A stretch of 64,000 nt of DNA from Bacteroidales bacterium (GCA_030596605.1 JAUVJI010000002.1:2904-66903), one strand, 5' to 3'; numbered from the stretch's first letter, positions 1,963 to 26,933 are shown. The notes: generated from the letters alone by a model not told the origin. Translations and numbers: made by a program.

Positions 1963-2016
1963 GCAAATAATAATTCATCCCCGGCGAATAATAATTTACC
2001 ACAAATAATCCAAACC
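1963..2016 (+). repeat. Degenerate GCAAATAATAAT / CGAATAATAAT / ACAAATAATCCAAA motif cluster upstream of the LytTR gene
   Basis: TTTGCAAATAATAATTCATCCCCGGCGAATAATAATTTACCACAAATAATCCAAACC aligns with 11609-11650. Confidence 0.45.
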
Positions 2017-2063: not shown

Positions 2064-2561
2064 ATGGAGAGAATCATTATCATAGATGATATGAACTGCA
2101 AGAAAGGCCTTCAGGAATTCCTTGAAGCCAATAAGGAGCATATTCGATACAGCACAACGATTGACAACTTAAAAAATACAACAAAGTTTTTCATTGATGA
2201 ATTAACCGGTAATTATGAATCCGAAAACAAGCTCGCTGTAAATACCGACAAACAAATCAATATCATCCATACCCATGAAATAATTTACCTTGAAGCATCA
2301 GGCAAAAAAACTAAACTACATCTGAGTAATAATAAATGTGTTGAAGCAATAAACAGTATCGATTCTTACGGCAAAAAGCTTATTAGTGCAAATTTCATAA
2401 GAGTCCACGAACAATATATTGTAAACCTTGAGTATTTCTCAAAATTCAATTTTAAAAATAAACTGGAACTTGAACTCCACAATGGGATTACCATTCCAGT
2501 TGATACTAATAAAAAAGACTTACTAATAAATTATATTGAAAACATAAGTGATAAAATTTAA
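2064..2561 (+). CDS. LytTR-domain DNA-binding regulator with truncated or degenerate receiver remnant
   Basis: The C-terminal ~100 aa (IIHTHEIIYLEASGKKTKLHL...FIRVHEQYIVNLEYF...ITIPV) has the LytTR pattern. The N-terminal ~60 aa starts like a receiver (RIIIIDD) but is far too short for a full REC domain. No histidine kinase gene is present in the window. Confidence 0.75.
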   Translation: MERIIIIDDMNCKKGLQEFLEANKEHIRYSTTIDNLKNTTKFFIDELTGNYESENKLAVNTDKQINIIHTHEIIYLEASGKKTKLHLSNNKCVEAINSIDSYGKKLISANFIRVHEQYIVNLEYFSKFNFKNKLELELHNGITIPVDTNKKDLLINYIENISDKI

Positions 2562-7798: not shown

Positions 7799-10700
7799 AT
7801 GAAAACGAAATTTATAATAATCATTTCGGCGCTTTTCATAATTACCTGGCCGGTTTTGCTGCAAAGTCAAACGATAGTAACCACAGCCGGGTCACCATCA
7901 GAGTGTCCCGGGGAAATTGTGGTTCCTATTACAGTGACCAATTGCAACGGGGTCGGAGCCATTTCACTTGTCTTTCAACACGATACCGGGATCCTGACTT
8001 ATATGAACTATGAGAATGTTCATGCAGATTTATCCACAGGACTCCTTATCGTTAATCAGACCGGTGATAAAGTGATCATAAGCTGGGCTTCGACTACTGC
8101 TGCCAATATCGGAAGCGGAACCCTGATGGACATCCGTTTTTCAGGGGTTACCGGAAACAGCAGTTTAACGTGGGACACACAAACACCAGGTAATTGTGAA
8201 TATAGCGATTCAAACGGAAATATTCTTCCGTCTTCTTATACCAACGGCACGGCTACGATTTATCAAGTGCCGGAGGTACTTGATCATCCAGATGATGTTA
8301 CGGCCCTTGTGAACGATGATGTAAGCTTTAGCGTAAATGCCCTAAGCACAGGTATCAGCAGATTATGGTACAGGAGTACGGATGGAGGAACAAACTGGTT
8401 TTCAACCGGAGTAACCTCAGCAACATTGAATGTTTATGATGTAACATTGGACATGGATGGATATTTATACCGCTGCGAGATCAGTGGCACATGCAGTCCA
8501 ATAGCAATCTCTGATGAGGCAGAGTTAACGGTGATTCAACCGTTGATTACATCATTTGATGTGCAGGATGTTTGTCCGGGAAATATTACAATCCCAATCC
8601 TGACATCCAATTTTACGGATGTCGCTTCCCTGTCATTGGCATTTAGCTATAATACCTCAACTTTAACCTATTCGGGTTATCAGAATGTAAATTCCCTGTT
8701 GCCCGGAAACTTTGTATGTAATGAAGTGGGTGGAATGGTATATATGACATGGTCAACTACTTCACCTGTAACTTTTGGAACTGATACAACGCTAGTTGAA
8801 ATTCAATTTACAGGAGCAACCGGAAGCAGTAACCTGACATGGGACTTGACAACACCGGGAAATTGCGAATACACCTATTTGAATGCAGATCAAATTGTTT
8901 CTGTTTTCCAGGACAATTCGTTTACCATTTACCAGGTGCCGCAAATCAATGTTCAACCTGTTGATAAGCTGATCCCGGAAAATACCGGAACTAGCTTTAG
9001 TGTGTCAGCCGTAGCTTCAGGAATTAATTATCAATGGCAGATAAGTACTGATGATGGTGGAATTTGGACAGACATGATCAATGGTGGCCAATACAGTGGT
9101 GTGACATCAGCCACCCTTAACATTTCCAGTGCCTCGCTCTCAATGAGTGGTTATTGGTATCGTTGTATTGTAGGTGGGTATTGTTTACCTGATGCTATTT
9201 CTGATCCCGCCGAATTGATTGTCCTGCCAAGAATAACAGCAATTGCAGGAAATGTTTCTGATTGTCCGGGGACTATTACAGTACCTATTGATGTTACCCA
9301 TTTTATCAATGTTGCAGCCTTTTCCTTAACACTTAATTTTGATGAGGCCATATTAACCTTTGATAATTATCAATCGTTACATAGTAACCTATCAGGTGGA
9401 AGCTTTGCTTTAAATGCTGTTGATGGAAAAGTTTACATGACATGGACTTCAACCACGCCGGCTACCATCGGCGATGACCTTTTGATAGAATTGTTATTTA
9501 CCGGTATCACCGGAAGCAGTTCATTGAACTGGAATAATAGTGTTGAAGGAGCCTGTGAATTCAGCGACCTTGATGGAAATATCATTTTCGATAATTATAT
9601 AAATGGCAATGTCACTGTCTATCAACCTCCGATAATAACCGGTGATCCATCAAATCAAACGGCACCTGAAGGTACTGGAACAAGTTTTTCCGTTTCAGCA
9701 ACAGGAACGGGATTAAGTTACCAATGGCAGGAAAGTGACGATGATGGAAACAACTGGAATAATTTGTCGAACATCGCACCTTATTCAGGAGTAAATACTG
9801 CAACATTACAAATCAATCCAGTTGACCAAACAATGGATGCTTATCAATACAGGTGCAGGGTGTCAGGAACATGTCCGCCGCTGGTTTATTCAAGTTCTGC
9901 AATATTGAATGTGATACCTCCTGTTATTCATACTTCAGCTGGAGATATTTCAAATTCCTGTACAGGCAACATTACTGTACCTATAGGCGTGAGTAATTGT
10001 AATAATGTCGGGGCTATTTCTTTGGCTGTGAATTATGATAATACCAAACTGACTTATGAAGGTTATCAGTCACCAAACAGCGAATTAAGTGGAGGTATGT
10101 TAATTATAAATGCAACAGCAACACAGATTATACTCAGTTGGGCTTCGGTTAATCCGGCGGATATAGGTTTTGGAACTTTGATAGAATATAAATTTAAGGC
10201 CAATGCCGGAACTTCAACAACACTAATCTGGGATACACAGACACTTGGAAATTGCGAATACAGCGACCCTGACGGAAATATTTTTGCCATGGCATTTAAC
10301 ACCGGTGATATTTCTATCGCAGCCAATGCTTTGGTTGTAGATGCCGGAAGTGATGAAACAATAAGTCCGGGAGGGTCAGTCCAGTTAAATGGTTCGGCAA
10401 CAGGTGGTACTTTGCCTTATGGGATACAATGGACACCAACAAACTGGCTGACAGATCCAAATATTTTAGATCCTATAGCTGATCCACCAACTACAACCAC
10501 TTATACTTTAACAGTAATGGATAACCTGGGATGTTCAGGATCTGATGAAATGACGGTTAATGTGACTACAGCTGGAATTGACCTGGAATTGAAAGCTTTC
10601 CTGGAAGGTCCATTCAGCGGAACAACAATGGGAACAGAATTAAATAGCAATAATCTGATTCCACATAATCATCCTTACTCAGGGGCGCCATGGAATTATT

Positions 10701-11245
10701 CAGGATCGGAATATGTAACATGCATTCCAAATACTAATATTACTGACTGGGTAATGGTAGAATTAAGAGAGACAAGTGGCGGAGCTTCAACGGCAACCGG
10801 AGGAACAATGATCGTGCAGCAAGCAGGATTTATCCTGAATGATGGAAATATTGTGGATACAAATAGTACTAACATGATGCATTTTGATGTATTCATTACA
10901 CAAAATCTTTATGTTGTTATCTGGCATAGAAATCATCTGGCTATTATGTCATCCGGACCATTGACAAATGTGGGGGCAACATATTCCTGGGACTTTACAA
11001 CAGGTTCAGGACAGGCTCATGGAACAGATGCCCAGAAAATCCTTGGAGGAGTTTACGGCATGTATGCCGGAGATGGTGATGCCAATGGTACTGTTGAAAC
11101 AGCTGATAAAAGTGCAGTTTGGGGCTCACAGGTTGGAATGAAAGGTTATTACTCAGGTGATTTTGATATGAACGGCCAGGTGATGAACCAGGATAAAAAT
11201 GATGTTTGGTTAGGTAACTTTAATGAACAAACACAGATACCATAA
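7799..11245 (+). CDS. Scaffoldin-like secreted protein: 4 x (cohesin-like + Ig-like) modules, SprB/PKD-like segment, C-terminal LEGPF/HRNHL module with dockerin-like loops; no T9SS CTD
   Basis: Signal peptide MKTKFIIIISALFIITWPVLLQSQ. There are four ~230-aa repeats. Each has a CPG.I.VPI.V......AISL.F.YD...LTY...W.....G..TL block (cohesin-like). Each also has a YQWQ.S.DGG..W......YSGV.SATL.I......GY.YRC block (Ig-like). The C-terminus ends ...NEQTQIP. Confidence 0.85.
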   Translation: MKTKFIIIISALFIITWPVLLQSQTIVTTAGSPSECPGEIVVPITVTNCNGVGAISLVFQHDTGILTYMNYENVHADLSTGLLIVNQTGDKVIISWASTTAANIGSGTLMDIRFSGVTGNSSLTWDTQTPGNCEYSDSNGNILPSSYTNGTATIYQVPEVLDHPDDVTALVNDDVSFSVNALSTGISRLWYRSTDGGTNWFSTGVTSATLNVYDVTLDMDGYLYRCEISGTCSPIAISDEAELTVIQPLITSFDVQDVCPGNITIPILTSNFTDVASLSLAFSYNTSTLTYSGYQNVNSLLPGNFVCNEVGGMVYMTWSTTSPVTFGTDTTLVEIQFTGATGSSNLTWDLTTPGNCEYTYLNADQIVSVFQDNSFTIYQVPQINVQPVDKLIPENTGTSFSVSAVASGINYQWQISTDDGGIWTDMINGGQYSGVTSATLNISSASLSMSGYWYRCIVGGYCLPDAISDPAELIVLPRITAIAGNVSDCPGTITVPIDVTHFINVAAFSLTLNFDEAILTFDNYQSLHSNLSGGSFALNAVDGKVYMTWTSTTPATIGDDLLIELLFTGITGSSSLNWNNSVEGACEFSDLDGNIIFDNYINGNVTVYQPPIITGDPSNQTAPEGTGTSFSVSATGTGLSYQWQESDDDGNNWNNLSNIAPYSGVNTATLQINPVDQTMDAYQYRCRVSGTCPPLVYSSSAILNVIPPVIHTSAGDISNSCTGNITVPIGVSNCNNVGAISLAVNYDNTKLTYEGYQSPNSELSGGMLIINATATQIILSWASVNPADIGFGTLIEYKFKANAGTSTTLIWDTQTLGNCEYSDPDGNIFAMAFNTGDISIAANALVVDAGSDETISPGGSVQLNGSATGGTLPYGIQWTPTNWLTDPNILDPIADPPTTTTYTLTVMDNLGCSGSDEMTVNVTTAGIDLELKAFLEGPFSGTTMGTELNSNNLIPHNHPYSGAPWNYSGSEYVTCIPNTNITDWVMVELRETSGGASTATGGTMIVQQAGFILNDGNIVDTNSTNMMHFDVFITQNLYVVIWHRNHLAIMSSGPLTNVGATYSWDFTTGSGQAHGTDAQKILGGVYGMYAGDGDANGTVETADKSAVWGSQVGMKGYYSGDFDMNGQVMNQDKNDVWLGNFNEQTQIP
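7871..10325 (+). repeat. Four tandem ~690-nt coding repeats (cohesin-like + Ig-like module)
   Basis: Module boundaries are marked by ...IYQVPE (about 8263), ...IYQVPQ (about 8935), ...VYQPP (about 9625) and ...ISIAAN (about 10325). Confidence 0.8.
10577..11242 (+). other. LEGPF/HRNHL module copy A (domain I could not match to a named family, with two dockerin/EF-hand-like loops)
   Basis: IDLELKAFLEGPF...DWVMVELRETSGGAS...HRNHLAIMS...GDGDANGTVETAD...GDFDMNGQVMNQDKND...QIP. Confidence 0.8.
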
Positions 11246-11545
11246 AATCGGGATAATTCATCCGATGACTTCGAGTCATCGGATGAATCTCTACTTATTC
11301 GTCTGATCACTGTCCATGTGTATGCCTTGCACGCAGTGGTCTGACGAATAATAAAAGGAAAAAACACAGGTTATGAATTAATTGTAAGTTCATTGAAATT
11401 TAAAATATACATAAGAAAGGAGGCAATAAGTTTATTGATCTTTGTAAACCAAAATTTACGAACTTGCTATTTTAGAAAGGAACTTTAATCTTCGCAAATA
11501 TTATCCAAATGAGGGCCCCGTTTTAGCTTACGGGGTTCTTTTTTA
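11246..11545 (+). repeat. Conserved structured non-coding element, copy 1 (two long hairpins, conserved blocks, GCAAATA-TATCCAAA motif, intrinsic terminator); candidate ncRNA or structured 3-prime UTR
   Basis: Hairpin 1 at 11257-11287 is TTCATCCGATGACT-TCG-AGTCATCGGATGAA, a perfect 14-bp stem. Hairpin 2 at 11297-11349 is ATTCGTCTGATCACTG...CAGTGGTCTGACGAAT. It has a homolog at 17096-17391. Confidence 0.6.
11513..11545 (+). terminator. Intrinsic terminator-like hairpin plus T-run
   Basis: GGGCCCCGTTTTAGCTTACGGGGTTCTTTTTT. Confidence 0.6.
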
Positions 11546-11608
11546 TATAGTTAGTGATTCCGAAACATAGATTTATCTCAGAAACTTCTACTTTGTTATA
11601 GGTTATCT

Positions 11609-11650
11609 TCGCAAATAATAATCCAACCCCGGCAAATAATAATTCATGTC
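11609..11650 (+). repeat. GCAAATAATAATCCAA-CCCCGG-CAAATAATAATTC motif pair upstream of the 11749 gene
   Basis: CTTCGCAAATAATAATCCAACCCCGGCAAATAATAATTCATG belongs to the same family as 1963-2016, 11493-11510, 17341-17358 and 18551-18567. Confidence 0.45.
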
Positions 11651-11748
11651 ATATTTATCAGATTTGTATATTTAGTTTTACAATATTAAATCCGGTATGA
11701 ATTTAACTTCTGTTAATAACAATAAATATGTAACTAAAACTTATCACA

Positions 11749-14529
11749 ATGAAAACAAAATTATTCATCCCGAAAGCTTTCGGGATCAAATCAATCATCT
11801 TCGGTGTCCTGTTTTTTGGGTTATTATTAAGCCACAGTGCAAATGCCCAGCCCAACCTATGGGGAATGACTTCCTTTGATTATTCGGGTCATTATGGCGT
11901 AATATACTGCTATAACGCAAGTACGGACATTTATACCGTAAAACATTTTTTCGACGAAACAGACGGTGGTCAACCAAGCTATGGATTAATACAGGCTTCT
12001 GACGGGCTGTTATATGGAGTGACAGATTTAGGAGGTGATAATGATGCAGGTGTAATCTTTAAAATTGACCCGGCTAACGGTAATTTTACCAAAATTCACG
12101 ATTTTTATTGGTGGACTGGTACATGGCCTTCAGGTACCTTATTGCAGGCTTCTGACGGGCTGTTATATGGAATGACGAATGGAGGAGGGGACAATGGCTA
12201 TGGTGTTATCTATAAAATCGACCCAAATAATAATGATTTTACCAAAATACATGATTTTAATGGAATGGATGGGGGTTATACAATGGGAGGCTTAATGCAG
12301 GCTTCTAACGGGCTATTATATGGAATGACGTATGAAGGAGGGGACGATGACTGTGGTGTTATCTTTAAAATTGACCCAACTAATAATGATTTTACCAAAA
12401 TACACGATTTTGATTGGACAGACGGAATATGGCCAATAAACAATCTAATACAAGCTTCAAACGGGTTGCTATATGGAATGACATATGATGGTAATTATTA
12501 TGGAGTTATTTTTAAAATTGACCCGGCTGACGATACTTTCACAAAAACATACGATTTTAATTCGGAGGGCAGAAGTCCGTGTGGTGGTTTATTTGAGGCT
12601 TCTGACGGGCTGCTATATGGAATGACGTATGAAGGAGGAGACAATGACTGTGGTGTTCTCTTTAAATATGAACCGCTTAACGATACTTACACCAAAATTG
12701 CCGATTTTAACGGAACAAACGGGGCTAATCCATACAGCACTTTAATGCAGGCTTCCGATGGACTTTTATATGGCTACACAACTGATGGAGGCTCTACCAG
12801 TGATGGCAATATATTTAAATATGACATCACCACCGGGATTCTGACAGGTATTTATGATTTTGACGGAACAAACGGAAATGATCCTTTTTTTGGTAGTTTG
12901 GTAGAGGTAAGTACAAGTGTCACTGTAAGCTGCACTACTCCTGTAACTCCGTTAAATGCAACAACCGGTATAAGTGTTAACACCTCTCTGGAATGGAATA
13001 GCGTACCGGAGGCTGATGCATACCTGTTATACTTCGGAACTGATAATCCGCCAACAAACATTGAAGATGAATTGGATGTGGGAAATGTTACATCATACAC
13101 TCCATGTATAGCATTGGGTTATGACCAAACATATTATTGGCAGGTTATACCTTATAATTCAACCAACACGGCTTTAGGATGTGATATTTGGTCGTTTACA
13201 ACAGAAGACAACAGGATTGATCTTGACCTTACAGTTTATCTCGAAGGGCCATACGATGGCACCGATATGGATACGGATCTTAATCCCGAACTCATCCCTT
13301 TATCCCAACCTTATAACGATCCTTTGAAATGGGATTACCAGGGAATGGAAATTGTTGATAGTATTCCGAATGTGAATGTGGTTGACTGGGTGTTGATAGA
13401 ATTAAGGGAAACCACTGGGGATGCATCAACTGCCCGGCCCGGCACTATGATTGCAAGGCAAGCTGCTTTCCTGTTGAATGATGGGTCTGTTGTTGGTTTG
13501 GATGGTACAGACAACGCATGCGTTGTCTCGTCCCCCATTACCAACAATCTGTTCGTTGTAATCTATCACCGCAACCACCTCGAAATAATGTCAGCCAATC
13601 CATTATCCGAATCAGGAGGGGTTTATACTTACGATTTTACAACACCTGAAGGACAGGCTTATGGAACAGATGCACAGAAAAACCTCGGTGGAAATTACGG
13701 GATGTATGCCGGAGATGGTGATGCCAATGATACTGTTGAAATCGCAGATATAAACAACACCTGGAATTTGCAGGCTGGGAAGAATGGTTACTATTCCGGT
13801 GATTTTGATATGGACAGTGAGGTTAATAATATTGACAAAAATGATGTTTGGTTAAATAATATTGGTATGGCTTGCCAGATGCCGGTTGAAATCCCTGTTA
13901 TTTGTGGTGATCCGTTCACAGATTACCGAGACGGGCAAAGTTATAACACAGTACAAATAGGCACACAATGCTGGATGTCCGAATACCTGAACATTGGTAC
14001 TATGGTAAACGGCAACTGCAACCAAAGCAATAACAGCACTATTGAAAAATACTGTTATGGCAACAACACAAGCAATTGTGATACCTATGGCGGCCTGTAC
14101 CAATGGAATGAGATAATGCAATATGTCACAACACCAGCTGTACAAGGTATTTGCCCTGCCGGCTGGCATTTACCGACTGATGATGAATGGAAAACTATGG
14201 AAATGCATCTCGGTATGACACAAGCCCAGGCTGATGCGACAGGTTGGCGAGGTACTGATGAAGGGGGCAAGCTCAAAGAATTTGGTACAGATCATTGGAC
14301 TTCACCCAATACAGGGGCAACAAATTCGAGTGGTTTCACAGCCTTACCGACTGGTCACCGTAACATCAACGGAAATTTCTGGAATCTCACGAATAACGGC
14401 CAATGTTGGTCATCAAGCGAGAACGGTTATGCCGCATGGAACAGATACCTGGAACATGTTAGCGCACAGGTGTGGCGGAGCGCCAACAACAAGATGGACG
14501 CCTTCGGGGTACGTTGTGTGCTGGATTGA
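11749..14529 (+). CDS. Secreted protein: GloVer-type (Gloeo_Verruco-like) repeat propeller, FN3-like domain, LEGPY/HRNHL module, C-terminal FISUMP (Fibrobacter succinogenes major paralogous) domain
   Basis: Signal peptide ...LLLSHSANAQ. About six to seven ~51-aa repeats read QASDGLLYGMT..GG..G.GVIFKIDP....FTKIHDF. The LEGPY...HRNHLEIMS...GDGDANDTVEIAD...GDFDMDSEVNNID module spans 13216-13896. The C-terminal CGDPFTDYRDGQSYNTVQIGTQCWM...CPAGWHLPTDDEW...GVRCVLD matches the FISUMP signature. Confidence 0.85.
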   Translation: MKTKLFIPKAFGIKSIIFGVLFFGLLLSHSANAQPNLWGMTSFDYSGHYGVIYCYNASTDIYTVKHFFDETDGGQPSYGLIQASDGLLYGVTDLGGDNDAGVIFKIDPANGNFTKIHDFYWWTGTWPSGTLLQASDGLLYGMTNGGGDNGYGVIYKIDPNNNDFTKIHDFNGMDGGYTMGGLMQASNGLLYGMTYEGGDDDCGVIFKIDPTNNDFTKIHDFDWTDGIWPINNLIQASNGLLYGMTYDGNYYGVIFKIDPADDTFTKTYDFNSEGRSPCGGLFEASDGLLYGMTYEGGDNDCGVLFKYEPLNDTYTKIADFNGTNGANPYSTLMQASDGLLYGYTTDGGSTSDGNIFKYDITTGILTGIYDFDGTNGNDPFFGSLVEVSTSVTVSCTTPVTPLNATTGISVNTSLEWNSVPEADAYLLYFGTDNPPTNIEDELDVGNVTSYTPCIALGYDQTYYWQVIPYNSTNTALGCDIWSFTTEDNRIDLDLTVYLEGPYDGTDMDTDLNPELIPLSQPYNDPLKWDYQGMEIVDSIPNVNVVDWVLIELRETTGDASTARPGTMIARQAAFLLNDGSVVGLDGTDNACVVSSPITNNLFVVIYHRNHLEIMSANPLSESGGVYTYDFTTPEGQAYGTDAQKNLGGNYGMYAGDGDANDTVEIADINNTWNLQAGKNGYYSGDFDMDSEVNNIDKNDVWLNNIGMACQMPVEIPVICGDPFTDYRDGQSYNTVQIGTQCWMSEYLNIGTMVNGNCNQSNNSTIEKYCYGNNTSNCDTYGGLYQWNEIMQYVTTPAVQGICPAGWHLPTDDEWKTMEMHLGMTQAQADATGWRGTDEGGKLKEFGTDHWTSPNTGATNSSGFTALPTGHRNINGNFWNLTNNGQCWSSSENGYAAWNRYLEHVSAQVWRSANNKMDAFGVRCVLD
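11950..12900 (+). repeat. Tandem ~153-nt coding repeats (GloVer-type blades)
   Basis: CAGGCTTCTGACGGGCTGTTATATGG-like cores start at 11992, 12145, 12298, 12451, 12595 and 12748. Spacing is 153 nt, with one step of 144. Confidence 0.85.
13216..13896 (+). other. LEGPF/HRNHL module copy B (internal, followed by the FISUMP domain)
   Basis: IDLDLTVYLEGPY...DWVLIELRETTGDAS...HRNHLEIMS...GDGDANDTVEIAD...GDFDMDSEVNNIDKND...EIP. Confidence 0.8.
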
Positions 14530-14581: not shown

Positions 14582-17095
14582 ATGAAAAATCTCATTCTAA
14601 TTAACTTTTTAGTTTTGTTTCTAATTACTTTTTTAACAGGCCAGGTTATTTCTGATTTTGAAATTGAAGATGATACTGAAAATTGGCATTCCGAAGGTGA
14701 TGGCAATTATGGTTGGGAATCAGGCACAGGAAACCCTGGTGGATGTTTTCGTGTAAATGATTATGCCACAGGAGATATGAACCGTGCTTATGCGCCGGTG
14801 AAATTTCTTGGTGACTGGTCATCCGCCACAACAAGTGATTCTATTTCCGCTGACATTTTTCTACATGACATGGGCGGAGGGTATGTAAATCCTAATTTTG
14901 TATTCAGGATTGTTGGCCCGGGAGGTTCTGCTATTGCTATATATGATCCTATACCTACGCCACCACATGATACCTGGATCACCTATTCTGTAAACCTAAT
15001 TGAAAATGATTGGTTTGTTGAATACGGCACATGGGCTGATATTCTTCAACATGTTAGCACATTTATCGTTACAATGGAATATATCAGTGGTGATGAATAT
15101 AATTTGTTAGACAATGTAACTCTTTCTTTTACGCCCATTGCAGTTCCCATTACTCCTGTTCTGTGTTCAGATTTTGAAAGCGGCTTATTTGAAGGATGGT
15201 CGGTAAATGATGCCGGGAGTGCTTCAATAGCAAGCACCGGTGGTAACCCTGGGAAATATCTTAAAATTAATGATGGCACCGGGAATTCAATAGCTGTGCC
15301 TTCATCTATCTATCACGGTGACTGGTCATTACTTGACGGCCATAATGCAGAGATCCATATAGACTATCTGATTACAGATATTAACGGGCCAACCTATTTA
15401 CATGATTTTTTTGTGAAAATTGCAGGTCCGGGGGGCGAAGCAACATATCCCATTGATAACAATATTGAGTTGGCTTTTAACAAATGGCATTCATTTGGTA
15501 TTCCAATTGAGCAAGCAGGCTGGATAATTTTAAGTGGCGATTGGAATTCGTTGATGGATTTTGTGGACGACATCCAAATTGTTGCCGAATTTATCTCTGG
15601 GGATGAAACCGTCGGGATTGATAATTTTTGCATTTCCAATTTACCGCCTTCAACGGAATTTATGGCTGAAAAGATATTTGTCTATTTGGGTGAAACAGTG
15701 CAGTTTTTCGATCAAACAACATCAGCACCGCAAACCTGGAATTGGGATTTTGGCGATTCCGGATCGAGCACAGAAGTTAATCCTTCTCATCAGTACCTTG
15801 CCCCGGGATTATATACAGTATCTTTAACTACAACCAACTACTTCGGTAATAGCACTGAAACAAAAACAGGATACATTGAAGTATATCCGGTTGATCAGTG
15901 TTTAAAGTTTGAAGATGATTTTGACGATAATATTATTCATCAAGCCTGGTCTTTTAAAAATGGGACTTGGAACGAAACATCCGGATTGATGAGGCAATCT
16001 TCAAATCATTATGTATCTGGTAATTACTTGGAAGGCTGTTTTGCTATTACAGGCAGTTTATTGTGGAACGATTATATTGTTTCCTGTGATTTCCGGTCAA
16101 CTGACAATGATATAATTGGTTTTGTTTTTAACTACCAGGATGAACAAAACATGTATATGTTCAGATGGAGGTTGAATCCTTTATACAGATCACTGTTTAA
16201 ATATGAAAACGGAGTTGAAACAGAACTTGCAACTGATAATGTCGGATATATTGAAAACGACTGGTACCATGCTGACATATACTCTTTAGACGGTAATATC
16301 GTGCTTGCTATTAATGGGGTGGAAATTTTTAGTGTTTTTGATGATACATTTACAAATGGGAAAGTTGGGTTGTATTGCTTTGGTAACCAATCCAGTTATT
16401 ATGATAATTTCAAGGTGGAATGTCCGGGGACACCTGTTGAGCTTAAAGTATTTTTAGAAGGGCCTTTTACAGGGTCTGAAATGACCACCGGCTTAAATGA
16501 CCAGAATATTCTTGCATTAAACAATCCCTATCCTAACGCTCCCTGGAATCATACCGGAACAGAAGGAGTGCTTTCATTTTCCAATCCGGATGTAACTGAC
16601 TGGGTGCTGGTAGATTTCAGGGATACTACATCGGCAAGTGCGGCACTACCCGCCTCTTCTATTGGAACCAAAGCAGCGTTGTTATTAAAAAACGGTCAAG
16701 TTATTTCACCTTATGGAGGATTGCCATTGTATCTTAATGCCACCATTAATAATAATCTTTATATTGTTATTCAGCACAGGAACCATTTGGGAATCTTGTC
16801 AGCAAATCCGGTAACAGAAGCCGGCGGAATGTATTCGTATGACTTTACAAACGGATCAGGACAGGCTTATGGAACAAATGCACAGAAAAATCTCGGTGGA
16901 ATTTATGGAATGTATGCCGGAGATGGTGATGCCAATGGAACTATTGAAGTGTCCGATATAAACAACATCTGGGGTTCACAGGTTGGAAAGATAGGATACT
17001 GGTCTGGTGATTTTGATATGAACGGGCAAGTGATGAATCAGGATAAAAATGATGTGTGGTTTTTGAATATAAACGAACAAACACAGATACCATAA
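14582..17095 (+). CDS. Secreted protein: two ~170-aa N-terminal repeats, PKD domain, LamG/concanavalin-like (DUF1080-like) domain, C-terminal LEGPF/HRNHL module; no T9SS CTD
   Basis: Signal peptide MKNLILINFLVLFLITFLTGQ. PKD signature WNWDFGDSGSSTEVNPSHQYLAPGLYTVSLT. A LamG-like block reads FEDDFDD...GFVFNYQDEQNMYMFRW...GKVGLYCF. The C-terminal module spans 16436-17092 and ends ...NEQTQIP. Confidence 0.85.
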   Translation: MKNLILINFLVLFLITFLTGQVISDFEIEDDTENWHSEGDGNYGWESGTGNPGGCFRVNDYATGDMNRAYAPVKFLGDWSSATTSDSISADIFLHDMGGGYVNPNFVFRIVGPGGSAIAIYDPIPTPPHDTWITYSVNLIENDWFVEYGTWADILQHVSTFIVTMEYISGDEYNLLDNVTLSFTPIAVPITPVLCSDFESGLFEGWSVNDAGSASIASTGGNPGKYLKINDGTGNSIAVPSSIYHGDWSLLDGHNAEIHIDYLITDINGPTYLHDFFVKIAGPGGEATYPIDNNIELAFNKWHSFGIPIEQAGWIILSGDWNSLMDFVDDIQIVAEFISGDETVGIDNFCISNLPPSTEFMAEKIFVYLGETVQFFDQTTSAPQTWNWDFGDSGSSTEVNPSHQYLAPGLYTVSLTTTNYFGNSTETKTGYIEVYPVDQCLKFEDDFDDNIIHQAWSFKNGTWNETSGLMRQSSNHYVSGNYLEGCFAITGSLLWNDYIVSCDFRSTDNDIIGFVFNYQDEQNMYMFRWRLNPLYRSLFKYENGVETELATDNVGYIENDWYHADIYSLDGNIVLAINGVEIFSVFDDTFTNGKVGLYCFGNQSSYYDNFKVECPGTPVELKVFLEGPFTGSEMTTGLNDQNILALNNPYPNAPWNHTGTEGVLSFSNPDVTDWVLVDFRDTTSASAALPASSIGTKAALLLKNGQVISPYGGLPLYLNATINNNLYIVIQHRNHLGILSANPVTEAGGMYSYDFTNGSGQAYGTNAQKNLGGIYGMYAGDGDANGTIEVSDINNIWGSQVGKIGYWSGDFDMNGQVMNQDKNDVWFLNINEQTQIP
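16436..17092 (+). other. LEGPF/HRNHL module copy C
   Basis: VELKVFLEGPF...DWVLVDFRDTTSAS...HRNHLGILS...GDGDANGTIEVSD...GDFDMNGQVMNQDKND...QIP. Confidence 0.8.
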
Positions 17096-17391
17096 AATCG
17101 GGATAATTCATCCGATGACTTCGAGTCATCGGATGAATCTCTACTTATTCGTCTGACCACTGCCGGTGCGTATGCTTGGGGCGCAGTGGTCTGACGAATA
17201 CTAAAGAAAAAATACACGTTCCTTATTAATTGTAAATTCAGAAAAATTAAAATAATAGTAAGAAAGGAGGAAAACCACTTTACAATCTTTGCAAACCAAA
17301 ATTATTGAATTTGCAATTTTAGAAAGGAACTATAAATCTTCGCAAATAATATCCAAATAAACCCCTGTTAAAAAAATCAGGGGTTTTTTTA
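17096..17391 (+). repeat. Conserved structured non-coding element, copy 2
   Basis: The first ~64 nt after the stop codon are identical to copy 1. Hairpin 1 spans 17107-17137 and hairpin 2 spans 17147-17199 (17-bp stem with one T-T mismatch). Shared blocks are TTAATTGTAA, TAAGAAAGGAGG, ATCTTTGCAAACCAAAATT and TTTTAGAAAGGAACT. It ends with CTTCGCAAATAATATCCAAAT and a terminator. Confidence 0.6.
17360..17391 (+). terminator. Intrinsic terminator-like hairpin plus T-run
   Basis: AACCCCTGTTAAAAAAATCAGGGGTTTTTTT. Confidence 0.65.
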
Positions 17392-17575
17392 GTTGGGCTG
17401 TACAACTTTTGTGGAGTGGAATTTATTAACGACCAAAAAGTAAATTTCCGTTAATTTAGATAATTATATCCACTTGATTAACGTATTTTGTATTTCTATA
17501 GTTAATTTGTGTGTTATTATTTGTAGTTTTAACTTTTTGTTTGTAGTTTTGCGTTAATTTATTAATTTATATACC

Positions 17576-18448
17576 ATGGGAAAAGCAAATAATATTTCCG
17601 GAAAGCTGGCTTCTTTACGCGAAAGATATTTTAAATATGCTTTTAAAAAAGCTTCATTATTAAATATTTTAAGCGAAGCAGAGGTATCAGAGCAGGTATA
17701 CAATTCCAATGCAATTGAAAACAGTACCTTAACATTTGATGAAACTCAAAAGATTTTACAGCAGATAGATTTGGACAGATTTATTTCGGAAAGAGAGTTG
17801 TTCGAAACTAAAAACCTGTCTCGTGTAATTGGCTATCTAAATTCCAAAGCAAAAGAAAAGGAACTGGACATAGAAATGACCTTATTGCTCCATAAAATGC
17901 TGATGTCGAACATCAATGATAAAATTGCCGGAAGATTCAGGAACGACACAGAATGGGTCAGGGTGGGCAATCATATTGCTGTTGATCCAAAACAGGTTTA
18001 TGACAGTATGGAAGAAATGCTTATAAAATATTATTCAACAGCCCATCTCAGTATTGTGAAAAGAATTGTCTTTTTACATTTAACATTTGAGCACATTCAT
18101 CCCTTTGTGGATGGCAATGGCCGAATTGGCAGGGTGATAAACAATTACTTTTTGATCCGTGAGGGTTATGTTCCCATTAACATTAAGTTTATCGACCGGG
18201 CGTTGTATTATGATGCATTCAGCGAATTTGACAGTAGTGGTAATACTACTATTATGGAAGATATCGTTGGAAAAGCCCTTACTAACAGTTACCATAAAAG
18301 GCTGGCTTACCTTGAAGAAAAACAAATTATAAGTTTAATTGAATATGCCAGATTAAAAAACACCTCTCACTCCAACATTATAAATAAAGCCAAAAGGCAA
18401 AGCATTGAGGCATTTACTGAAAAAGGCGTATGGAAAATTGGGGCTTAG
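17576..18448 (+). CDS. Fic family protein (AMPylase-type), with N-terminal inhibitory-helix-like motif
   Basis: Fic active-site motif HPFVDGNGRIGR fits HxFx(D/E)GNGRxxR. N-terminal SNAIEN fits the (S/T)xxxE(G/N) auto-inhibition motif. The C-terminal ~45 aa may form a small HTH-like tail. Confidence 0.85.
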   Translation: MGKANNISGKLASLRERYFKYAFKKASLLNILSEAEVSEQVYNSNAIENSTLTFDETQKILQQIDLDRFISERELFETKNLSRVIGYLNSKAKEKELDIEMTLLLHKMLMSNINDKIAGRFRNDTEWVRVGNHIAVDPKQVYDSMEEMLIKYYSTAHLSIVKRIVFLHLTFEHIHPFVDGNGRIGRVINNYFLIREGYVPINIKFIDRALYYDAFSEFDSSGNTTIMEDIVGKALTNSYHKRLAYLEEKQIISLIEYARLKNTSHSNIINKAKRQSIEAFTEKGVWKIGA

Positions 18449-18468
18449 TTAAAAAGGTTACATAGTTT

Positions 18469-18607
18469 ATTCATCGGACCACTGTCTGTGTATATGCCAT
18501 GCGCGCAGTGGTCTGACGAATATACGGGTTACTGCCGGTGCAAATGCCCTGCAAATAATAATCCAAAGAAAAATCCCGTCCTGATGGAAATCGAAACGGG
18601 ATTTTTC
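18469..18607 (+). repeat. Compact third copy of the hairpin-2 / GCAAATAATAATCCAAA / terminator element
   Basis: ATTCATCGGACCACTG...CAGTGGTCTGACGAAT spans 18469-18521. A partial second arm ACTGCCGGTGCAAATGCC follows. GCAAATAATAATCCAAAG spans 18551-18568, and a hairpin terminator spans 18571-18607. Confidence 0.55.
18571..18607. terminator. Bidirectional terminator between the convergent Fic gene and P1
   Basis: AAATCCCGTCCTGATGGAAATCGAAACGGGATTTTT has an A-run upstream and a T-run downstream of the ATCCCGT/ACGGGAT stem. Confidence 0.6.
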
Positions 18608-18631
18608 ATTTTATCAAATAACTTTATCCAG

Positions 18632-20509
18632 CTATTCCACAATCATCTTCTTTGTAATAGCAGCCTCACCAGCTTTTACTGTGTAGAAATAAATACCAGG
18701 TGTGAGTTTGGTTCCATCTATGATTATTTTATTCATCCCGGGCTGAGCAATTCCTGCATCAGCAGAATATACCATTTGTCCCATCATGTTTACAACTTCC
18801 AGTGTTAAAGGAGTTGTATGCCTCACATTCACTTTTACCGTTGAATTTTCTGTGAATGGATTAGGGTAGTTTTGCAATACATCATAATCAAATATAGCTG
18901 TATTGTCTTCATCCCCTACCCATACTTCAAGAATATCAGCTTTCATAAACCTGATGAAGTTTTCACCGTACGGATCTTCGTCACCCCTTACAGCAAGGCC
19001 GGGCTCAGTATCCGTTTGGTAAATCAGGTAATAATAGTCATCTGAGGTTGAAGCTATACTTGGGAATACACACTCATCAAAAATATGAATAAGATCGGAT
19101 GTCAAATCTGTAAAAGGGCCCCAGAAATCTCCGTACCCTGAAAAACGGCTCCACATATGACGGTAACTTTGTGTACCATTGTCATATGTTTCAGTTACAG
19201 AGGTGAAAACAATATAAATATTGTCATCTTCAGTAATTGTAATTTGAGGCATGCTTGAAAATCCGAGATAATATGTTCCCCAGTCATCCAAAACATCAAT
19301 GGTTCCATTGTTGTTAATATCCTGGGTCCAGCCAATCAAGCTGTAATCTTCCACAAGTTCAGAGTAAGAGCAATTATCATACAGAGGACAAAGGGCATCC
19401 ATGTCATTTGAAAAAGTGGGCCTGTTCTCATTCCAGTATCCTATACCACCTACACCCGGAAACCAAAAGGAGCCTGTGCCATCAGAATAAGACCTGTTAA
19501 TACCAAAAACAACATGTATCATACCCTCGCTGTCGTAAGCAAGGTGATGTGAGCCATCCACGCAATAGAATGTATCGGTGGGTGTTGGCTGGGCAGGATT
19601 GAACATCGGATATGGGTTCTCCCAGATCACTGTTTTCTCCCAGGTATCTCCCCCATCATCTGATTTCATCAAAATAAAATCGATCCATGAGTCACCCACC
19701 AAAAATGCAATGTTATCATCATCTGTTGCAGCCCATTCATACATATCGGCGCTAAAACCAACATAGTCGGCAGAAGAGAGCCCATCCAAAATAGCATGCT
19801 CGGGATCCCAGGTTGTTCCGCCATCTGTTGATCTTGAATATAACACTGCTCCATCCAGACCTTGATATATCGGTCCGCCATTGGCCTCCGGCCATGTAAT
19901 ACATAATGTTTGGATTACATTATTGTTAATCCCAGAAGTGGTTGACCTGTTCCAAGATATGGGTGTTGCGGCAGGTCCTTCAAAAACATCTTCTGACCAG
20001 GTTCCTGTTCCTTTTTCCTCTCTGATGAGATAAATAAGCTCTCCGGCACCAAAATCATGAGAAACGACAAGTTCACCATTTTCTCCATAAGGAGCATAAG
20101 AAGGCCATCCGGTTCTTAAGCTTTCAATTCTTTCCGTTGGCCAAGGTCCCCAGGTATTTCCGTCATAATAATTGTAACCTGTACCCCTGTCACCGGCAAA
20201 ATTTGGAAAATCCAAACCAAAAGTCCAGACACCGGCCATGGTTCCATCGGGATAAACATGAAAACGGTTCTGGTTACCAGTGTTGGATTGCAGGTCGTAA
20301 AAAGTATTACCGATGATCTCTTCCTCAGGTGTAAAATCTGCCTTATAAGAAGGAATAATCGGTGATTTGCTAAAATCTGACGGTGATTTAGAATGACGGG
20401 CTTTTCTAATGGAATAATCCCTTAGTTCCTTAGAAACAGTTGCCCGGTTTTGTGAAAATCCTGAGATGGCTATTCCCAGAATTAAAACGAAAAGTAATAG
20501 ATTTTTCAT
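18632..20509 (-). CDS. Asp-box (BNR) beta-propeller protein with T9SS CTD, paralog P1
   Basis: Signal peptide MKNLLLFVLILGIAISGFSQ. Asp-boxes YSRSTDGGTTW and MKSDDGGDTW. Conserved EF-hand-like loop DINNNGTIDVLDD. CTD YPNPFTENSTV...GIYFYTVKAGEAAITKKMIVE. Confidence 0.85.
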   Translation of the reverse strand: MKNLLLFVLILGIAISGFSQNRATVSKELRDYSIRKARHSKSPSDFSKSPIIPSYKADFTPEEEIIGNTFYDLQSNTGNQNRFHVYPDGTMAGVWTFGLDFPNFAGDRGTGYNYYDGNTWGPWPTERIESLRTGWPSYAPYGENGELVVSHDFGAGELIYLIREEKGTGTWSEDVFEGPAATPISWNRSTTSGINNNVIQTLCITWPEANGGPIYQGLDGAVLYSRSTDGGTTWDPEHAILDGLSSADYVGFSADMYEWAATDDDNIAFLVGDSWIDFILMKSDDGGDTWEKTVIWENPYPMFNPAQPTPTDTFYCVDGSHHLAYDSEGMIHVVFGINRSYSDGTGSFWFPGVGGIGYWNENRPTFSNDMDALCPLYDNCSYSELVEDYSLIGWTQDINNNGTIDVLDDWGTYYLGFSSMPQITITEDDNIYIVFTSVTETYDNGTQSYRHMWSRFSGYGDFWGPFTDLTSDLIHIFDECVFPSIASTSDDYYYLIYQTDTEPGLAVRGDEDPYGENFIRFMKADILEVWVGDEDNTAIFDYDVLQNYPNPFTENSTVKVNVRHTTPLTLEVVNMMGQMVYSADAGIAQPGMNKIIIDGTKLTPGIYFYTVKAGEAAITKKMIVE

Positions 20510-20610
20510 AGTACTGATTTTTAATTATTTAATTATTAATTTATAAATCATTAAATGTTTGTTGCAAGTTTAACGATAAAGATAGCCAAAATTATAAAAA
20601 ATCCTGAAAT

Positions 20611-20646
20611 AAACCAGCTAACGGTAAAATCAAATCAGTTAACGGT
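20611..20646 (-). promoter_or_regulatory. Candidate LytTR-type operator upstream of P1 (two 15-mers, 21-bp register)
   Basis: Gene-strand sequence: ACCGTTAACTGATTT (exact, 20632-20646), then ACCGTTAGCTGGTTT (20611-20625). Lies 102-137 nt upstream of the start codon. Confidence 0.6.
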
Positions 20647-20720
20647 AAAAAAGTCCACCTTCGCTAAAGCTTCGGAGGACAAGTAAAGTTAAAAGTATAA
20701 ATGTTAATTGGAAATTCAGC

Positions 20721-22583
20721 TTATTCCACTATCATCTTCCTGGTAACAGCAGCCTCACCCGCCTTCACCGTATAGAAATACAATCCCGGATTAAGTCCTT
20801 CCACATCAATTGTAATATTGTGAACTCCTGCCTGAAGATACCCTTCTTTAATTCCCAAAACTTTCTGGCCGGTAAGGTTGATAATTTCAAGGGAAATATT
20901 ACAAGATTCTGTTAATTCGATTTGCACTAAAGTTTCGTCACTAAACGGATTTGGAACATTCTGGCTTACTTTAAGATTTTTAACAGGTTCCATATTTTTT
21001 GCAATTCCTGTAATTACATCCACTGCCATAAAACTGATAAAATTTTCAAAAAATGGATCATTATCTCCTCTCACTGCCATTCCAGGTTCGGGATCATATT
21101 GAAATGTTAAATAATAGTTGAGCCAGCCATCGGAATAGGTTGCCAGGGATGGGAATACATTTTCATGCATACAATGACATAAATCGTTGGTTAAATGCAA
21201 AAATGAACTCCAGGTATAACCATCTAATGAATAACGGCCCCAAAGGTGCCGGTAGTTTTGTATACCATTATCATATGTTTCCGTAACGGATGAGTATACC
21301 ACAAATATCCTGTTCATATCATCAACAACAATCTGTGGCATACTTGAGAAACCAAGATAATAAGTACCCCAGTCATCCAGAAATTCAAGTTGTCCGTTTC
21401 CGTTAATATCCTGTGTCCAACCTATTAAACTATAATCTTCCTCAAGCTCAGAATCAGGATGGCCATAAGGACTTAAAGCATTCAAATTATTTGAGAAAGA
21501 AGGCCTGTTTTCATTCCAGTATCCTATTCCCCCAACGGCCGGAAACCAGTAAGTTCCTGCTCCGTCGCAAACAGTCCTGTTAATACCAAACACAACGTGA
21601 ACAATTCCTTCATCATTGAAATCCAAACTATGGGCGCCATCAGCACAATAGAAAGTATCAGTCGGGAACATATTATTGAAATTCCACATTGGATAGGGGT
21701 GCTCCCAAATTATTGTCTTTTCCCAGGTATTCCCGCTATCTGTTGATTTTAATAATAACAAATCAATCCATGGTGAGCCAATTAAAATGCCGACAATGTC
21801 ACCTTCGGCTTTAATGTCATAAGTATCCCCATCAAATCCAACATAATGGGTGTTATCAATCTCAGGGAAAACATAATTCTCAGGATTCCATGTACTTCCT
21901 CCATCCATAGACCTTGAATACAAAATGGCCGATATTTGCCCTTGATAGGGATTATATGGTTTTGTAACTGCCAACAAATGGATAACTGAATTATTCACAC
22001 CTCCGGTTGCCATCCTTGGAAATATAATATCCTCAAACAATTGGGGGCCAGTAAAATTCCACTCTTCCCAATCGCCCACACCCTTGTTGATCCTTTTATT
22101 AAACAAAAGACCATCAATATCAGCCCCGGACAGGTGAGATACAATAAGTTCTCCGTTTTCACCCAAGGGAGCATATGAAGCCCAGCCCGAACGCTGGCTT
22201 TCAATCCTCTCTGTTGGCCAGAGCTGCCATGCAGTTCCATCAAAATAGTTGTATCCGGTTCCCCTGTCATCCATAAAATTAGGATAATCATAACCCATTG
22301 TCCACACAGTTCCTATTGTGCCATCATCAAAAACATGAATCCTTTGTTGTGTGCTGTAATTGGTCTGCAGGTCGTAATATGTTGTTCCAATATCTTCTTC
22401 AAAATAACAGCTGCTTTTATAGGGAGCTTGTATATTGTGATTTTCCCGGGTTTGGTTATAAGATTCATCTACCTTAACTCCATAATCCTGCAATTCTTTT
22501 GAGATTTTTACCCTTTGCTGGGAAAAGCCGATTGTACAGATTAGTATTAATGTGAAAGTGATAACAATACTTTTCATGATCAA
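20721..22583 (-). CDS. Asp-box (BNR) beta-propeller protein with T9SS CTD, paralog P2
   Basis: Collinear with P1 and P3-P6. Asp-boxes YSRSMDGGSTW and LKSTDSGNTW. CTD VPNPFSDETLV...GLYFYTVKAGEAAVTRKMIVE. The start could be the second ATG at 22577. Confidence 0.85.
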   Translation of the reverse strand: MIMKSIVITFTLILICTIGFSQQRVKISKELQDYGVKVDESYNQTRENHNIQAPYKSSCYFEEDIGTTYYDLQTNYSTQQRIHVFDDGTIGTVWTMGYDYPNFMDDRGTGYNYFDGTAWQLWPTERIESQRSGWASYAPLGENGELIVSHLSGADIDGLLFNKRINKGVGDWEEWNFTGPQLFEDIIFPRMATGGVNNSVIHLLAVTKPYNPYQGQISAILYSRSMDGGSTWNPENYVFPEIDNTHYVGFDGDTYDIKAEGDIVGILIGSPWIDLLLLKSTDSGNTWEKTIIWEHPYPMWNFNNMFPTDTFYCADGAHSLDFNDEGIVHVVFGINRTVCDGAGTYWFPAVGGIGYWNENRPSFSNNLNALSPYGHPDSELEEDYSLIGWTQDINGNGQLEFLDDWGTYYLGFSSMPQIVVDDMNRIFVVYSSVTETYDNGIQNYRHLWGRYSLDGYTWSSFLHLTNDLCHCMHENVFPSLATYSDGWLNYYLTFQYDPEPGMAVRGDNDPFFENFISFMAVDVITGIAKNMEPVKNLKVSQNVPNPFSDETLVQIELTESCNISLEIINLTGQKVLGIKEGYLQAGVHNITIDVEGLNPGLYFYTVKAGEAAVTRKMIVE

Positions 22584-22620
22584 TTTTTTAGGAAATGTTT
22601 ATAAAAATAAAAACAGGTTT

Positions 22621-22628
22621 CAAATATA
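22621..22628 (-). promoter_or_regulatory. Bacteroidota -7 box-like element (TATATTTG) upstream of P2
   Basis: The gene-strand sequence TATATTTGAAACCTGTTTTTATTTTTATAAA is shared almost verbatim with the P3 upstream region. It matches the TAnnTTTG consensus and lies ~40 nt upstream of the ATG. Confidence 0.45.
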
Positions 22629-22721
22629 ATCATTTGATATGTTATATGCAAGAATGATATTCTAAGATATTGGACTGTAGGCGTATGAAGTTAAAATTTA
22701 ACTTTATACCCAATTGCAAAT

Positions 22722-24581: not shown

Positions 24582-24617
24582 TTTATTAGGTAATTTTTAT
24601 AAAAATAAAACAGGTTT

Positions 24618-24625
24618 CAAATATA
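24618..24625 (-). promoter_or_regulatory. Bacteroidota -7 box-like element (TATATTTG) upstream of P3
   Basis: Gene-strand TATATTTGAAACCTGTTTTATTTTTATAAA lies ~40 nt upstream of the ATG at 24581 and is a duplicate of the P2 upstream block. Confidence 0.45.
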
Positions 24626-24719
24626 GTCATTTGATATTGTAAATGCAAGAGTTAATCAGTTTGTGGTAAGTTACCCCCTCCCTTTCTCCCCCCCTGGAGG
24701 GGGAGGGTTGGGGTGGGGG

Positions 24720-26591: not shown

Positions 26592-26670
26592 GATCGTTTT
26601 TTTTAAGTTAGTAATATTTTTTTTAAGTGAATTCTCAAATATAAAAAGATTATATATTAAAGTCAAGGAT

Positions 26671-26706
26671 AAATCAGTTAACGGTGGGGAAAAGTAAGAA
26701 TTCGGT
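26671..26706 (-). promoter_or_regulatory. Candidate LytTR-type operator upstream of P4
   Basis: Gene-strand sequence: a degenerate ACCGAATTCTTACTT (26692-26706), then an exact ACCGTTAACTGATTT (26671-26685) 21 bp away. The proximal copy ends 27 nt before a TATATTTG -7-box-like element. Confidence 0.55.
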
Positions 26707-26772
26707 ATTTTTTTCAATTCTTAAAATTCTACTCTTCTGCTCTTTCGGATTTAAGGGAAGGCTAAGGTGTGG

Positions 26773-26878: not shown

Positions 26879-26933
26879 ATCTTCACTGCCCATAGCATAA
26901 ATCCGGACAAGCTGTATAGCAGAAAAAATTTAC

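Follow-up and report, generated by a model that had tools for sequence, protein, structure and literature searches.

A 64,000-nt stretch of DNA from an uncultured member of the Bacteroidales (GCA_030596605.1, JAUVJI010000002.1:2904-66903; hereafter the window) raises the question of what has kept two non-coding regions of about 300 bp so much alike. These regions, copy A (11246-11545) and copy B (17096-17391), follow the stop codons of two open reading frames (ORFs), 7799-11245 and 14582-17095. A preliminary description held that they are better conserved than the adjacent coding sequence and proposed that each forms one selected, structured RNA. We conclude instead, with a probability of roughly 70%, that the 300 bp form a mosaic downstream of a duplicated gene segment, a 3' flank resembling bacterial interspersed mosaic elements (BIMEs), and not one RNA gene. 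The layers of this flank are a conversion tract with a first hairpin, a spreading palindrome similar to repetitive extragenic palindromes (REPs), a relic gene end, an untranslated region (UTR) of about 130 nt, a 21-nt box and an ordinary terminator (Table 1). Loci designated by L numbers are contigs from metagenomes or metagenome-assembled genomes (MAGs).

Homology of the regions behind the two stop codons was borne out by blastn (11246-11510 against 17096-17358; 83.5% identity over 267 columns, E 1e-73). A MAFFT alignment of both 1-kb neighbourhoods agreed, with homology starting well within the genes and stopping just short of the terminators. Identity between the copies amounts to 48% at -546 to -347 of the coding sequence, 70.5% at -346 to -201 and 80.5% over its last 200 nt. 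Past the stop codon it reaches 100% (11246-11296), followed by 83% in hairpin 2 (62% in its loop), 74.5% in the middle (11350-11489), 95% in the box (11490-11510), 46% in the terminator and 40% beyond it. As the homology fades gradually in the upstream direction, the duplicated unit consists of the C-terminal module of the two proteins plus the flank. The whole non-coding part up to the box is 82.7% identical, compared with 80.5% for the last 200 nt of coding sequence. Thus, conservation above that of the adjacent genes is restricted to an 82-nt run of identity and to the box, whereas the rest of the flank is as diverged as the final 200 nt of the genes.

The run of perfect identity, originally put at the first 64 nt or so, does exist but is 82 nt long and reaches back into the genes, with 21 nt of coding sequence and 61 nt past the stop. 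It spans the end of the coding sequence with the stop codon and all of hairpin 1, and after a spacer it extends 10 nt into hairpin 2. At a background of about 80% identity, we calculate the chance of such a run at about 1e-6 across the alignment. Since the identity is uniform over synonymous sites, spacer, stem and loop, it points to recent homogenisation and not to structural selection. The segment looks like a recent gene-conversion or insertion tract, in line with the conversion tract that the preliminary description had named as its own alternative. Hairpin 1 is present in both copies as originally described (core TTCATCCGATGACT-TCG-AGTCATCGGATGAA at 11257-11287 and 17107-17137) and folds at -22.3 kcal/mol (z -6.5). 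It is restricted to the two window copies and absent from all homologues of the downstream UTR, or tail, outside the window; a contig of the same organism (L044) breaks off within it. L002 and L045 carry related CATC(C/G)GATG palindromes past the stops of their module genes; that of L002 has a T-run and is hence a terminator.

Hairpin 2 turned out to be a dispersed repeat. Its stem of 7 + 9 bp is interrupted by a T.T mismatch, where both arms read GTCTGAC and which nearly all copies retain; the folding energy lies between -26 and -29 kcal/mol (z -4.6 to -5.8). A third window copy lies downstream of the Fic gene. An exact-pattern scan with one genome per species found 25 loci, 24 of them within five MAGs: two Bacteroidales (exact-arm copies on 7 contigs of BS750m-G6 and 8 contigs of SMBSF25), one 'Bacteroidetes' and two 'Chlorobiota'. 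The lone match in a Planctomycetia genome has no 5' arm and is probably due to chance. The flanks of these loci are unrelated, either orientation occurs, and tandem arrays are frequent (L005, L006, L009, L011, L023, L025, L027). A relaxed search yielded 31 copies in the window and 27 loci, 28 of them beyond the window, these counts being pattern matches within fragmentary MAGs, with the window's genome covered for 64 kb only. Twenty-five of the 31 lie between long ORFs, and the other six are mostly found in stop-free stretches running to the contig end. Neither hairpin 2 nor the box was found in the viral contigs searched for a phage origin.

A stable imperfect palindrome, dispersed extragenic copies mostly past ORFs, and clusters or mosaics are marks of REPs and BIMEs that hairpin 2 shows; further marks are tens to hundreds of copies per genome and, for REPs, an associated RAYT transposase of the IS200/IS605 type. 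It is short, it has many extragenic copies just past ORFs, some in tandem, it has filled and empty sites, an insertion sequence (IS) has inserted beside it, and it is combined with other short motifs in a mosaic. REPs are mostly located downstream of ORFs, and those with a CGTC tag have been reported from Bacteroidetes and Chlorobi, with no dedicated transposase (PMC3733652). Members of the GTAG/CGTC superfamily carry an unpaired tag at one end, a stem of 8-9 bp, a loop of 4-5 nt and a CCA tail (PMC3733652). In contrast, hairpin 2 measures 53 nt, of which a semi-conserved loop takes up about 21 nt, and its stem has 17 bp; its arms read ATTCGTC on both strands, and the CGTC is base-paired inside the stem instead of forming an unpaired tag. 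Because neither its stem nor its loop has the size known from the four CGTC families described by Di Nocera et al. (2013, PMC3733652), we call it REP-like and not a member. Hairpin 2 documents a REP-like repeat family in uncultured Bacteroidales and 'Chlorobiota' MAGs.

The IS in question (L011, 970-2454) encodes a 494-aa transposase and has the end sequence AAGCACCCGGACAAAGAAGCAAATGTAACAT. The same end adjoins hairpin-2 copies in two MAGs (L011 and L025), which suggests an IS that targets the palindrome. Integron attC sites were considered and rejected as a reading of hairpin 2. Such sites are recognised by R''/R' cores (RYYYAAC...GTTRRRY), extrahelical bases, arrays separated by cassettes and a nearby IntI integrase; hairpin 2 has no GTT/AAC cores, its tandem arrays contain no intervening genes, and no integrase was found among the scanned window ORFs.

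Comparison with other loci separates the layers downstream of hairpin 1. L029 represents an empty site: its module gene ends ...GAACAAACACATGTGCCCGAT-TAA-TTGTAAG and leads straight into the tail with neither hairpin, the real stop codon standing in the context GAT-TAA-TTGTAAG. L001 carries hairpin 2 alone, 4 nt past the stop. The two window copies and L012 show a degenerate copy of the end seen in L029, preceded by an additional gene end and the hairpin or hairpins. The block TTAATTGTAA, first described as single-stranded RNA, matches the real gene end of L029 and is thus a fossil stop-codon region. A 12-nt direct repeat (11225-11236 and 11358-11369, 11 of 12 identical) stands on either side of the insert in the window. 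Miniature inverted-repeat transposable elements are recognised by terminal inverted repeats together with a target-site duplication; the insert of about 120 nt showed no such inverted repeats at its ends.

Behind the relic gene end follows the tail of about 130 nt, for which a profile search found full-length homologues only in window copies A and B, L001, L012, L029 and L035; in L035 the tail follows an unrelated Fib_succ_major gene. RNAalifold predicts a long-range helix, AATTGTAAGTTC with GAACTTGCTATT plus GTTCC with GGAAC (11380-11391 and 11460-11471), which shows 92% pairing in every one of the five tails tested, versus 29-51% with slid partners. It is possible, on the basis of this model, that the tail is a structured 3' UTR. 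Small ORFs were looked for in the tail on either strand, and no reading frame was conserved between A and B. TAAGAAAGGAG is invariant in all tail homologues. With a following G it constitutes, at 11412-11423 (TAAGAAAGGAGG in copy A) and 17259-17270, a perfect match to a Shine-Dalgarno-like sequence, after which neither a start codon nor a conserved ORF follows. To our knowledge, mRNAs of this phylum normally have no Shine-Dalgarno sequences. The tail region also holds two units similar to the -7 box of Bacteroidetes promoters (ATCTTyGCAAA; ATCTTyG at 11437-11444 and 11487-11494), the second with a TTTG-like element 20-21 nt upstream. Near the suspected transcription start site, a promoter-like segment was indeed found (TTTG-N21-AATCTTCG, 17310-17342); the -7 box of this phylum occupies -12 to -5 (PMC9723704).

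Judging from the comparison across loci, the 21-nt box is the only part of the flank under clear cross-lineage constraint; its conservation is the only one that is still to be explained. An exact search with CTTYGCAAATAWTATCCAAAT in metagenome contigs returned 15 loci, of which four are chance matches inside coding sequences of gut bacteria and one more (L030) is also chance-like. The exact 21-mer occurs on 11 non-coding metagenome contigs, corresponding to about eight distinct loci. The module proteins beside these exact boxes are only about 50% identical to those of the window, and terminators and upstream spacers are unrelated. The box lies 26-113 nt past the module-gene stop in L029, L032, L038, L039, L040, L043 and L046-L049 (the last four found through a protein search and not through the box), and 214 nt past it in L012; in L035 it follows the Fib_succ_major gene. 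The sequence between stop and box is unrelated between loci. Terminators start 2-9 nt past the box and are locus-specific in sequence, and the two window copies both end, as previously stated, in intrinsic terminators of differing sequence. Overall, 14 of 16 box instances are found downstream of a co-oriented stop codon, and 11 of 14 boxes at other loci have a hairpin within 12 nt (-16 to -28 kcal/mol for the 60 nt) plus a T-run. All five window boxes are on the + strand within the first 19 kb. The box follows hairpin 2 in the three window copies (A, B and that after Fic) and in L001, L012, L022 and L040. The module-gene loci L045 and L050-L052 have neither box nor hairpin 2, so that neither element is universal after module genes.

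In L038b and L022, the box is split precisely at its central W by hairpins of 12 and 36 nt. A single-stranded (RNA) element accommodates this more readily than a duplex operator of fixed spacing does. The role of the box is thus most likely played in single-stranded RNA beside the terminator, as a protein or RNA binding site or as the seed of a small RNA (sRNA). A comparable arrangement is known from enterobacterial 3'-UTR-derived sRNAs of the CpxQ, SroC and DapZ type. As in those, a conserved, largely unpaired and seed-like stretch of about 20 nt is located 5' of an intrinsic terminator of variable sequence at gene 3' ends. In contrast to those, no target was found for the box in the window, and some boxes lie outside 3' UTRs; we know of no Hfq in this phylum. 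Tentatively, and at well below even odds, the box may be an undescribed post-transcriptional signal at 3' ends in cohesin/dockerin-like secreted-protein clusters of uncultured Bacteroidales, either a site or the seed of a multi-copy sRNA family, acting together with LytTR regulators bound to GCrAATAATAAT promoter arrays.

By sequence inspection, sigma-54, extracytoplasmic function (ECF) sigma, dif/Xer, integration host factor (IHF) and attC readings of the box or of hairpin 2 were rejected for unfit spacing or core motifs; sigma-54, for example, needs GG-N10-GC, and the box has N9. In L038 (1800-1900, - strand), a palindromic repeat (CTCTCCCTCC...GGAGAGGGCCGGGGTGAGG) is located directly upstream of the split box, beside a tRNA gene.

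Taken together, the sequence comparisons show the following history. The oldest layer is a 3' UTR of about 190 nt common to related organisms, made up of the stop region TTAATTGTAA, an AU-rich segment, the 21-nt box and a terminator. Before the duplication, about 120 nt came to lie between gene and UTR; they brought in another gene end together with hairpin 1 and the dispersed palindrome (hairpin 2), and left the 12-nt direct repeat and the relic stop codon. After the duplication, the 82-nt tract around stop codon and hairpin 1 appears to have been homogenised. The flank is most probably transcribed with its gene, as a long 3' UTR reaching to the terminator. Hairpins 1 and 2 may then act, by analogy with REPs, as stem-loops that form exonuclease barriers or leaky terminators, and hairpin 2 would be present as a spreading repeat and not as a need of this RNA. 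Modular intergenic repeats are also known as the pneumococcal BOX and the Neisseria Correia-type elements. These are likewise modular and hairpin-forming, are found at gene ends and may carry promoter- or terminator-like parts; unlike them, the flank shows no sequence similarity to these families, and the inserted segment has no recognisable terminal inverted repeats.

Several points weigh against this account. The 12-nt repeat and the insert could equally be a scar of unequal recombination and not a footprint of transposition. Transcription of the flank with its gene is predicted from sequence. Copies of hairpin 2 were retrieved with a pattern that prescribed the 3' arm, and this restricts the reach of the covariation test; the tail helix does not beat shuffles, with one compensatory pair only among 3-4 independent lineages. 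As for an RNA-level role of the box, its predicted accessibility is only modestly raised (0.60 unpaired versus 0.45 upstream), and complementary matches of at least 12 nt in the window were the boxes' own opposite strands, the remainder being chance 10-11-mers. In addition, two or three box contexts are no 3' UTRs: in L031/L037 and L042 a divergent gene starts 73-74 nt away from the box, and the L038b box stands beside a tRNA gene, past another terminator.

An alternative for the box arises from the 21-bp arrays and LytTR genes of the same cluster. Units of the form GCrAATAATAAT (about CCCCGGCrAATAATAATT) recur with an exact 21-nt period at 1963/1984 and 11611/11632. An independent case with three units is found in L046/L047 (at about 11049-11102 in L046), upstream of a type IX secretion system (T9SS) gene that is followed by a gene for a 162-aa LytTR-only protein. 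The array at 11611-11643 is located 15 nt upstream of the -7-like CAGATTTG (11659-11666) and 106 nt upstream of the start of ORF 11749. Known LytTR operators, such as those of AgrA, ComE and SilA, are two or more direct repeats of 9-10 bp with a canonical 21-bp period upstream of a promoter (PMC2766830). All three arrays likewise combine direct repeats at this period with a -7-like box downstream and a LytTR gene nearby, and they are here taken as candidate operators, that is, putative LytTR binding sites. Unlike the known systems, their sequence is unrelated to known consensus sites, and the 165-aa regulator consists of LytTR only, without a receiver domain. A search of the literature for a link of LytTR to T9SS returned nothing relevant.

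It is rather unlikely that the box itself is a duplex-DNA operator of the local LytTR regulators, with the pre-terminator box as a single site and the arrays (1963/1984, 11611/11632, L046) as promoter-proximal activator sites. Box and arrays do share a core (GCrAATAWTAT, in the box GCAAATAWTAT), and the site at 11607 resembles a box plus terminator minus the right arm, so that the two are probably related by descent. Moreover, the arrays lie 11-15 nt upstream of their -7-like boxes, LytTR genes adjoin module genes in the window, in L029 and in L046-L049, and the L031 and L042 boxes upstream of a gene start would suit a DNA site. However, the pre-terminator box is a single unit without the operator geometry, hugs terminators rather than promoters, has a 14/16 strand bias relative to the upstream gene, and tolerates the central hairpin inserts. 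The sites at 1959 and 11607 are also homologous, and the window therefore provides only one independent observation of the period, in addition to L046.

Unlikely, too, is an independent sRNA gene of some 45-55 nt that consists of box and terminator and ends at the latter. The left end of the box, nATCTTyG, would here be a sigma-A -7 box with a -33 TTTG 20-21 nt upstream, and transcription would start inside the box at about 11499 and 17347. The pattern (T/C)TT(G/A)-N20-21-(A/C)ATCTT(C/T)G is retained in six of six tails, its position agrees with a -7 box spanning -12 to -5 (PMC9723704), and a canonical local promoter, TATATTTGCAAAG, is found in L029. Such a gene would also account for box-plus-hairpin units outside 3' UTRs (L031, L042, L038b). 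Against it, T(-12) is usually absent, most copies have TTCG instead of TTTG, and L038, L043 and L046 (CCTCTTCG) as well as L038b (TTTCTTCG) have no -33 element. The strongest conservation furthermore lies downstream of the putative -7 box, unlike in promoters.

That the flank is nothing but a recent gene-conversion or duplication tract, with neutral similarity and no function, we regard as improbable. The 82-nt run of 100% identity over coding and non-coding sequence speaks for it, as does the identity of the other non-coding parts (74-83%), which equals that of the adjacent coding sequence. Yet the tail is conserved in other organisms, in L035 even after a different gene, and the box is invariant at about eight metagenome loci whose flanks cannot be aligned.

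The proposal of one structured non-coding RNA of about 300 nt, a long 3' UTR or an sRNA with hairpins kept by RNA-level selection, is very improbable. Several of its premises did stand: folding of the whole region is far more stable than that of shuffles (z -6.7 and -9.2), and the tail helix is present in five of five tails. Further homologues were found in other organisms, so that a lack of them, named in the preliminary description as a ground for refutation, does not apply. Hairpin 2 has the conserved stems, the differing loop and the one pair difference that had been described, U.G in copy A (T at 11307) and C.G in copy B (C at 17157). However, three individual hairpins account for the z-scores, with copy A folding like shuffles in its middle part (z -0.3) and copy B better there (z -3.6). 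Hairpin 2 occurs at many unrelated loci and is absent from L029, and hairpin 1 belongs to the conversion-like run and is absent from the tail homologues outside. Covariation gave no support: in 32 aligned copies of hairpin 2 the outer stem is 95% paired with 0 compensatory pairs, and no measure exceeds shuffles, so that the single U.G/C.G difference is no sign of RNA-level selection; covariation in the tail helix (five tails) stays within the shuffles as well. The RNAalifold covariation term is unfavourable. A search of the whole window against Rfam 15 at gathering threshold returned only tRNA-Gln. In E-value mode (E<=10) over 11150-11760 and 17000-18650, the best match scored 27 bits against a threshold of 40 (C0465), and the others were terminator look-alikes. 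A 3' region that looks over-conserved can thus be accounted for by an old UTR on which a spreading REP-like palindrome and a recent conversion tract have been superimposed, which advises caution in calling structured RNAs from two paralogous copies only.

Least probable of all is a minus-strand promoter in the reverse complement of the box (ATTTGGATAWTATTTGCGAAG), from which the gene downstream would be transcribed in L031/L042 and, at other loci, an antisense RNA over module-gene 3' ends: it would unify the contexts, with the element always leftward, the hairpin always upstream on that strand and a distance of 73-74 nt to the ATG in two diverged homologous loci, but it reads TA-N3-TTTG and not TAnnTTTG, a -33 element is impossible because its position falls in the variable terminator stems, and the G.U pairs of the tail helix argue for a plus-strand RNA.

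Table 1 Features of the duplicated 3' flank and its surroundings in the window.
Feature	Position	Strand	Basis
82-nt run, 100% identical to 17075-17156	11225-11306	+	longest identical run between A and B
Hairpin 1, 15-bp perfect stem, 3-nt loop, no U-tract	11256-11288; copy B 17106-17138	+	fold
Hairpin 2, 53-nt REP-like palindrome, ATTCGTCTGAyCACTG-loop-CAGTGGTCTGACGAAT	11297-11349; others 17147-17199, 18469-18521		alignment and fold
Relic ancestral gene end, GAAAAAACACAGGTTATGAATTAA (cf. L029 GAACAAACACATGTGCCCGATTAA with real stop)	11358-11381; copy B 17206-17229	+	alignment
Tail (old 3' UTR)	11382-11489; copy B 17230-17337	+	profile and alignment
Box, CTTCGCAAATAWTATCCAAAT	11490-11510; copy B 17338-17358	+	alignment, exact search
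Variant boxes	1959-1979, 11607-11627, 18547-18566 (after Fic)	+	motif search
Intrinsic terminator, copy A	11511-11545	+	fold, -17.8 kcal/mol
Intrinsic terminator, copy B	17359-17390	+	fold, -13.2 kcal/mol
Terminator after Fic gene	18568-18607	+	fold
Candidate LytTR operator, two GCAAATAATAAT units 21 nt apart	11611-11643	+	site geometry
Same array arrangement	1963-1995	+	upstream of LytTR-only gene 2064-2561
165-aa LytTR-only protein	2064-2561	+	gene cluster member
1738-aa Kelch/beta-helix T9SS protein		+	gene cluster member
1148-aa cohesin protein		+	gene cluster member
926-aa Fib_succ_major protein		+	gene cluster member
837-aa PKD protein		+	gene cluster member
Fic gene	17576-18448	+	gene cluster member
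C-terminal dockerin-like module, 3' end of ORF 7799-11245 (GDGDANGTV...GDFDMNGQV...NEQTQIP*)	10878-11245	+	paralogy

The flanks belong to a + strand gene cluster that fills the first 19 kb of the window. The best protein matches of the window are proteins of Bacteroidales MAGs, and a Logan contig from run SRR18936874 is 100% identical to it over 1.47 kb. ORFs 7799-11245 and 14582-17095 end in the same C-terminal module of about 210 aa with dockerin-like calcium loops (GDGDANGTV, GDFDMNGQV). The segment 10878-11245 is paralogous to 16728-17095 and to an internal copy at 13520-13819, with 70-80% nucleotide identity among the copies and 73% amino acid identity across the last 115 codons. Two small cis elements, the terminator-proximal box and the LytTR-adjacent 21-bp repeats, are linked to cohesin/dockerin-like surface-protein clusters.

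Genes for cohesin-domain proteins cluster with those for proteins carrying the dockerin-like module (7799-11245, 14582-17095 and neighbours; L045, L050), a hint that these Bacteroidales may possess a cellulosome-like assembly system. The internal module copy precedes the Fib_succ_major domain of ORF 11749-14529, which also contains six tandem repeats of about 150 nt (about 50 aa) at 11931-12790. The Fic gene is bracketed by box-plus-terminator units (17338 and 18547), has a hairpin-2 copy behind it and resembles a small cassette. On the - strand, 18632-28875 holds five tandem paralogous genes for proteins of about 620-665 aa with BNR-like motifs (60-80% DNA identity among them), and the one scanned, 18632-20509, encodes a T9SS C-terminal sorting domain.

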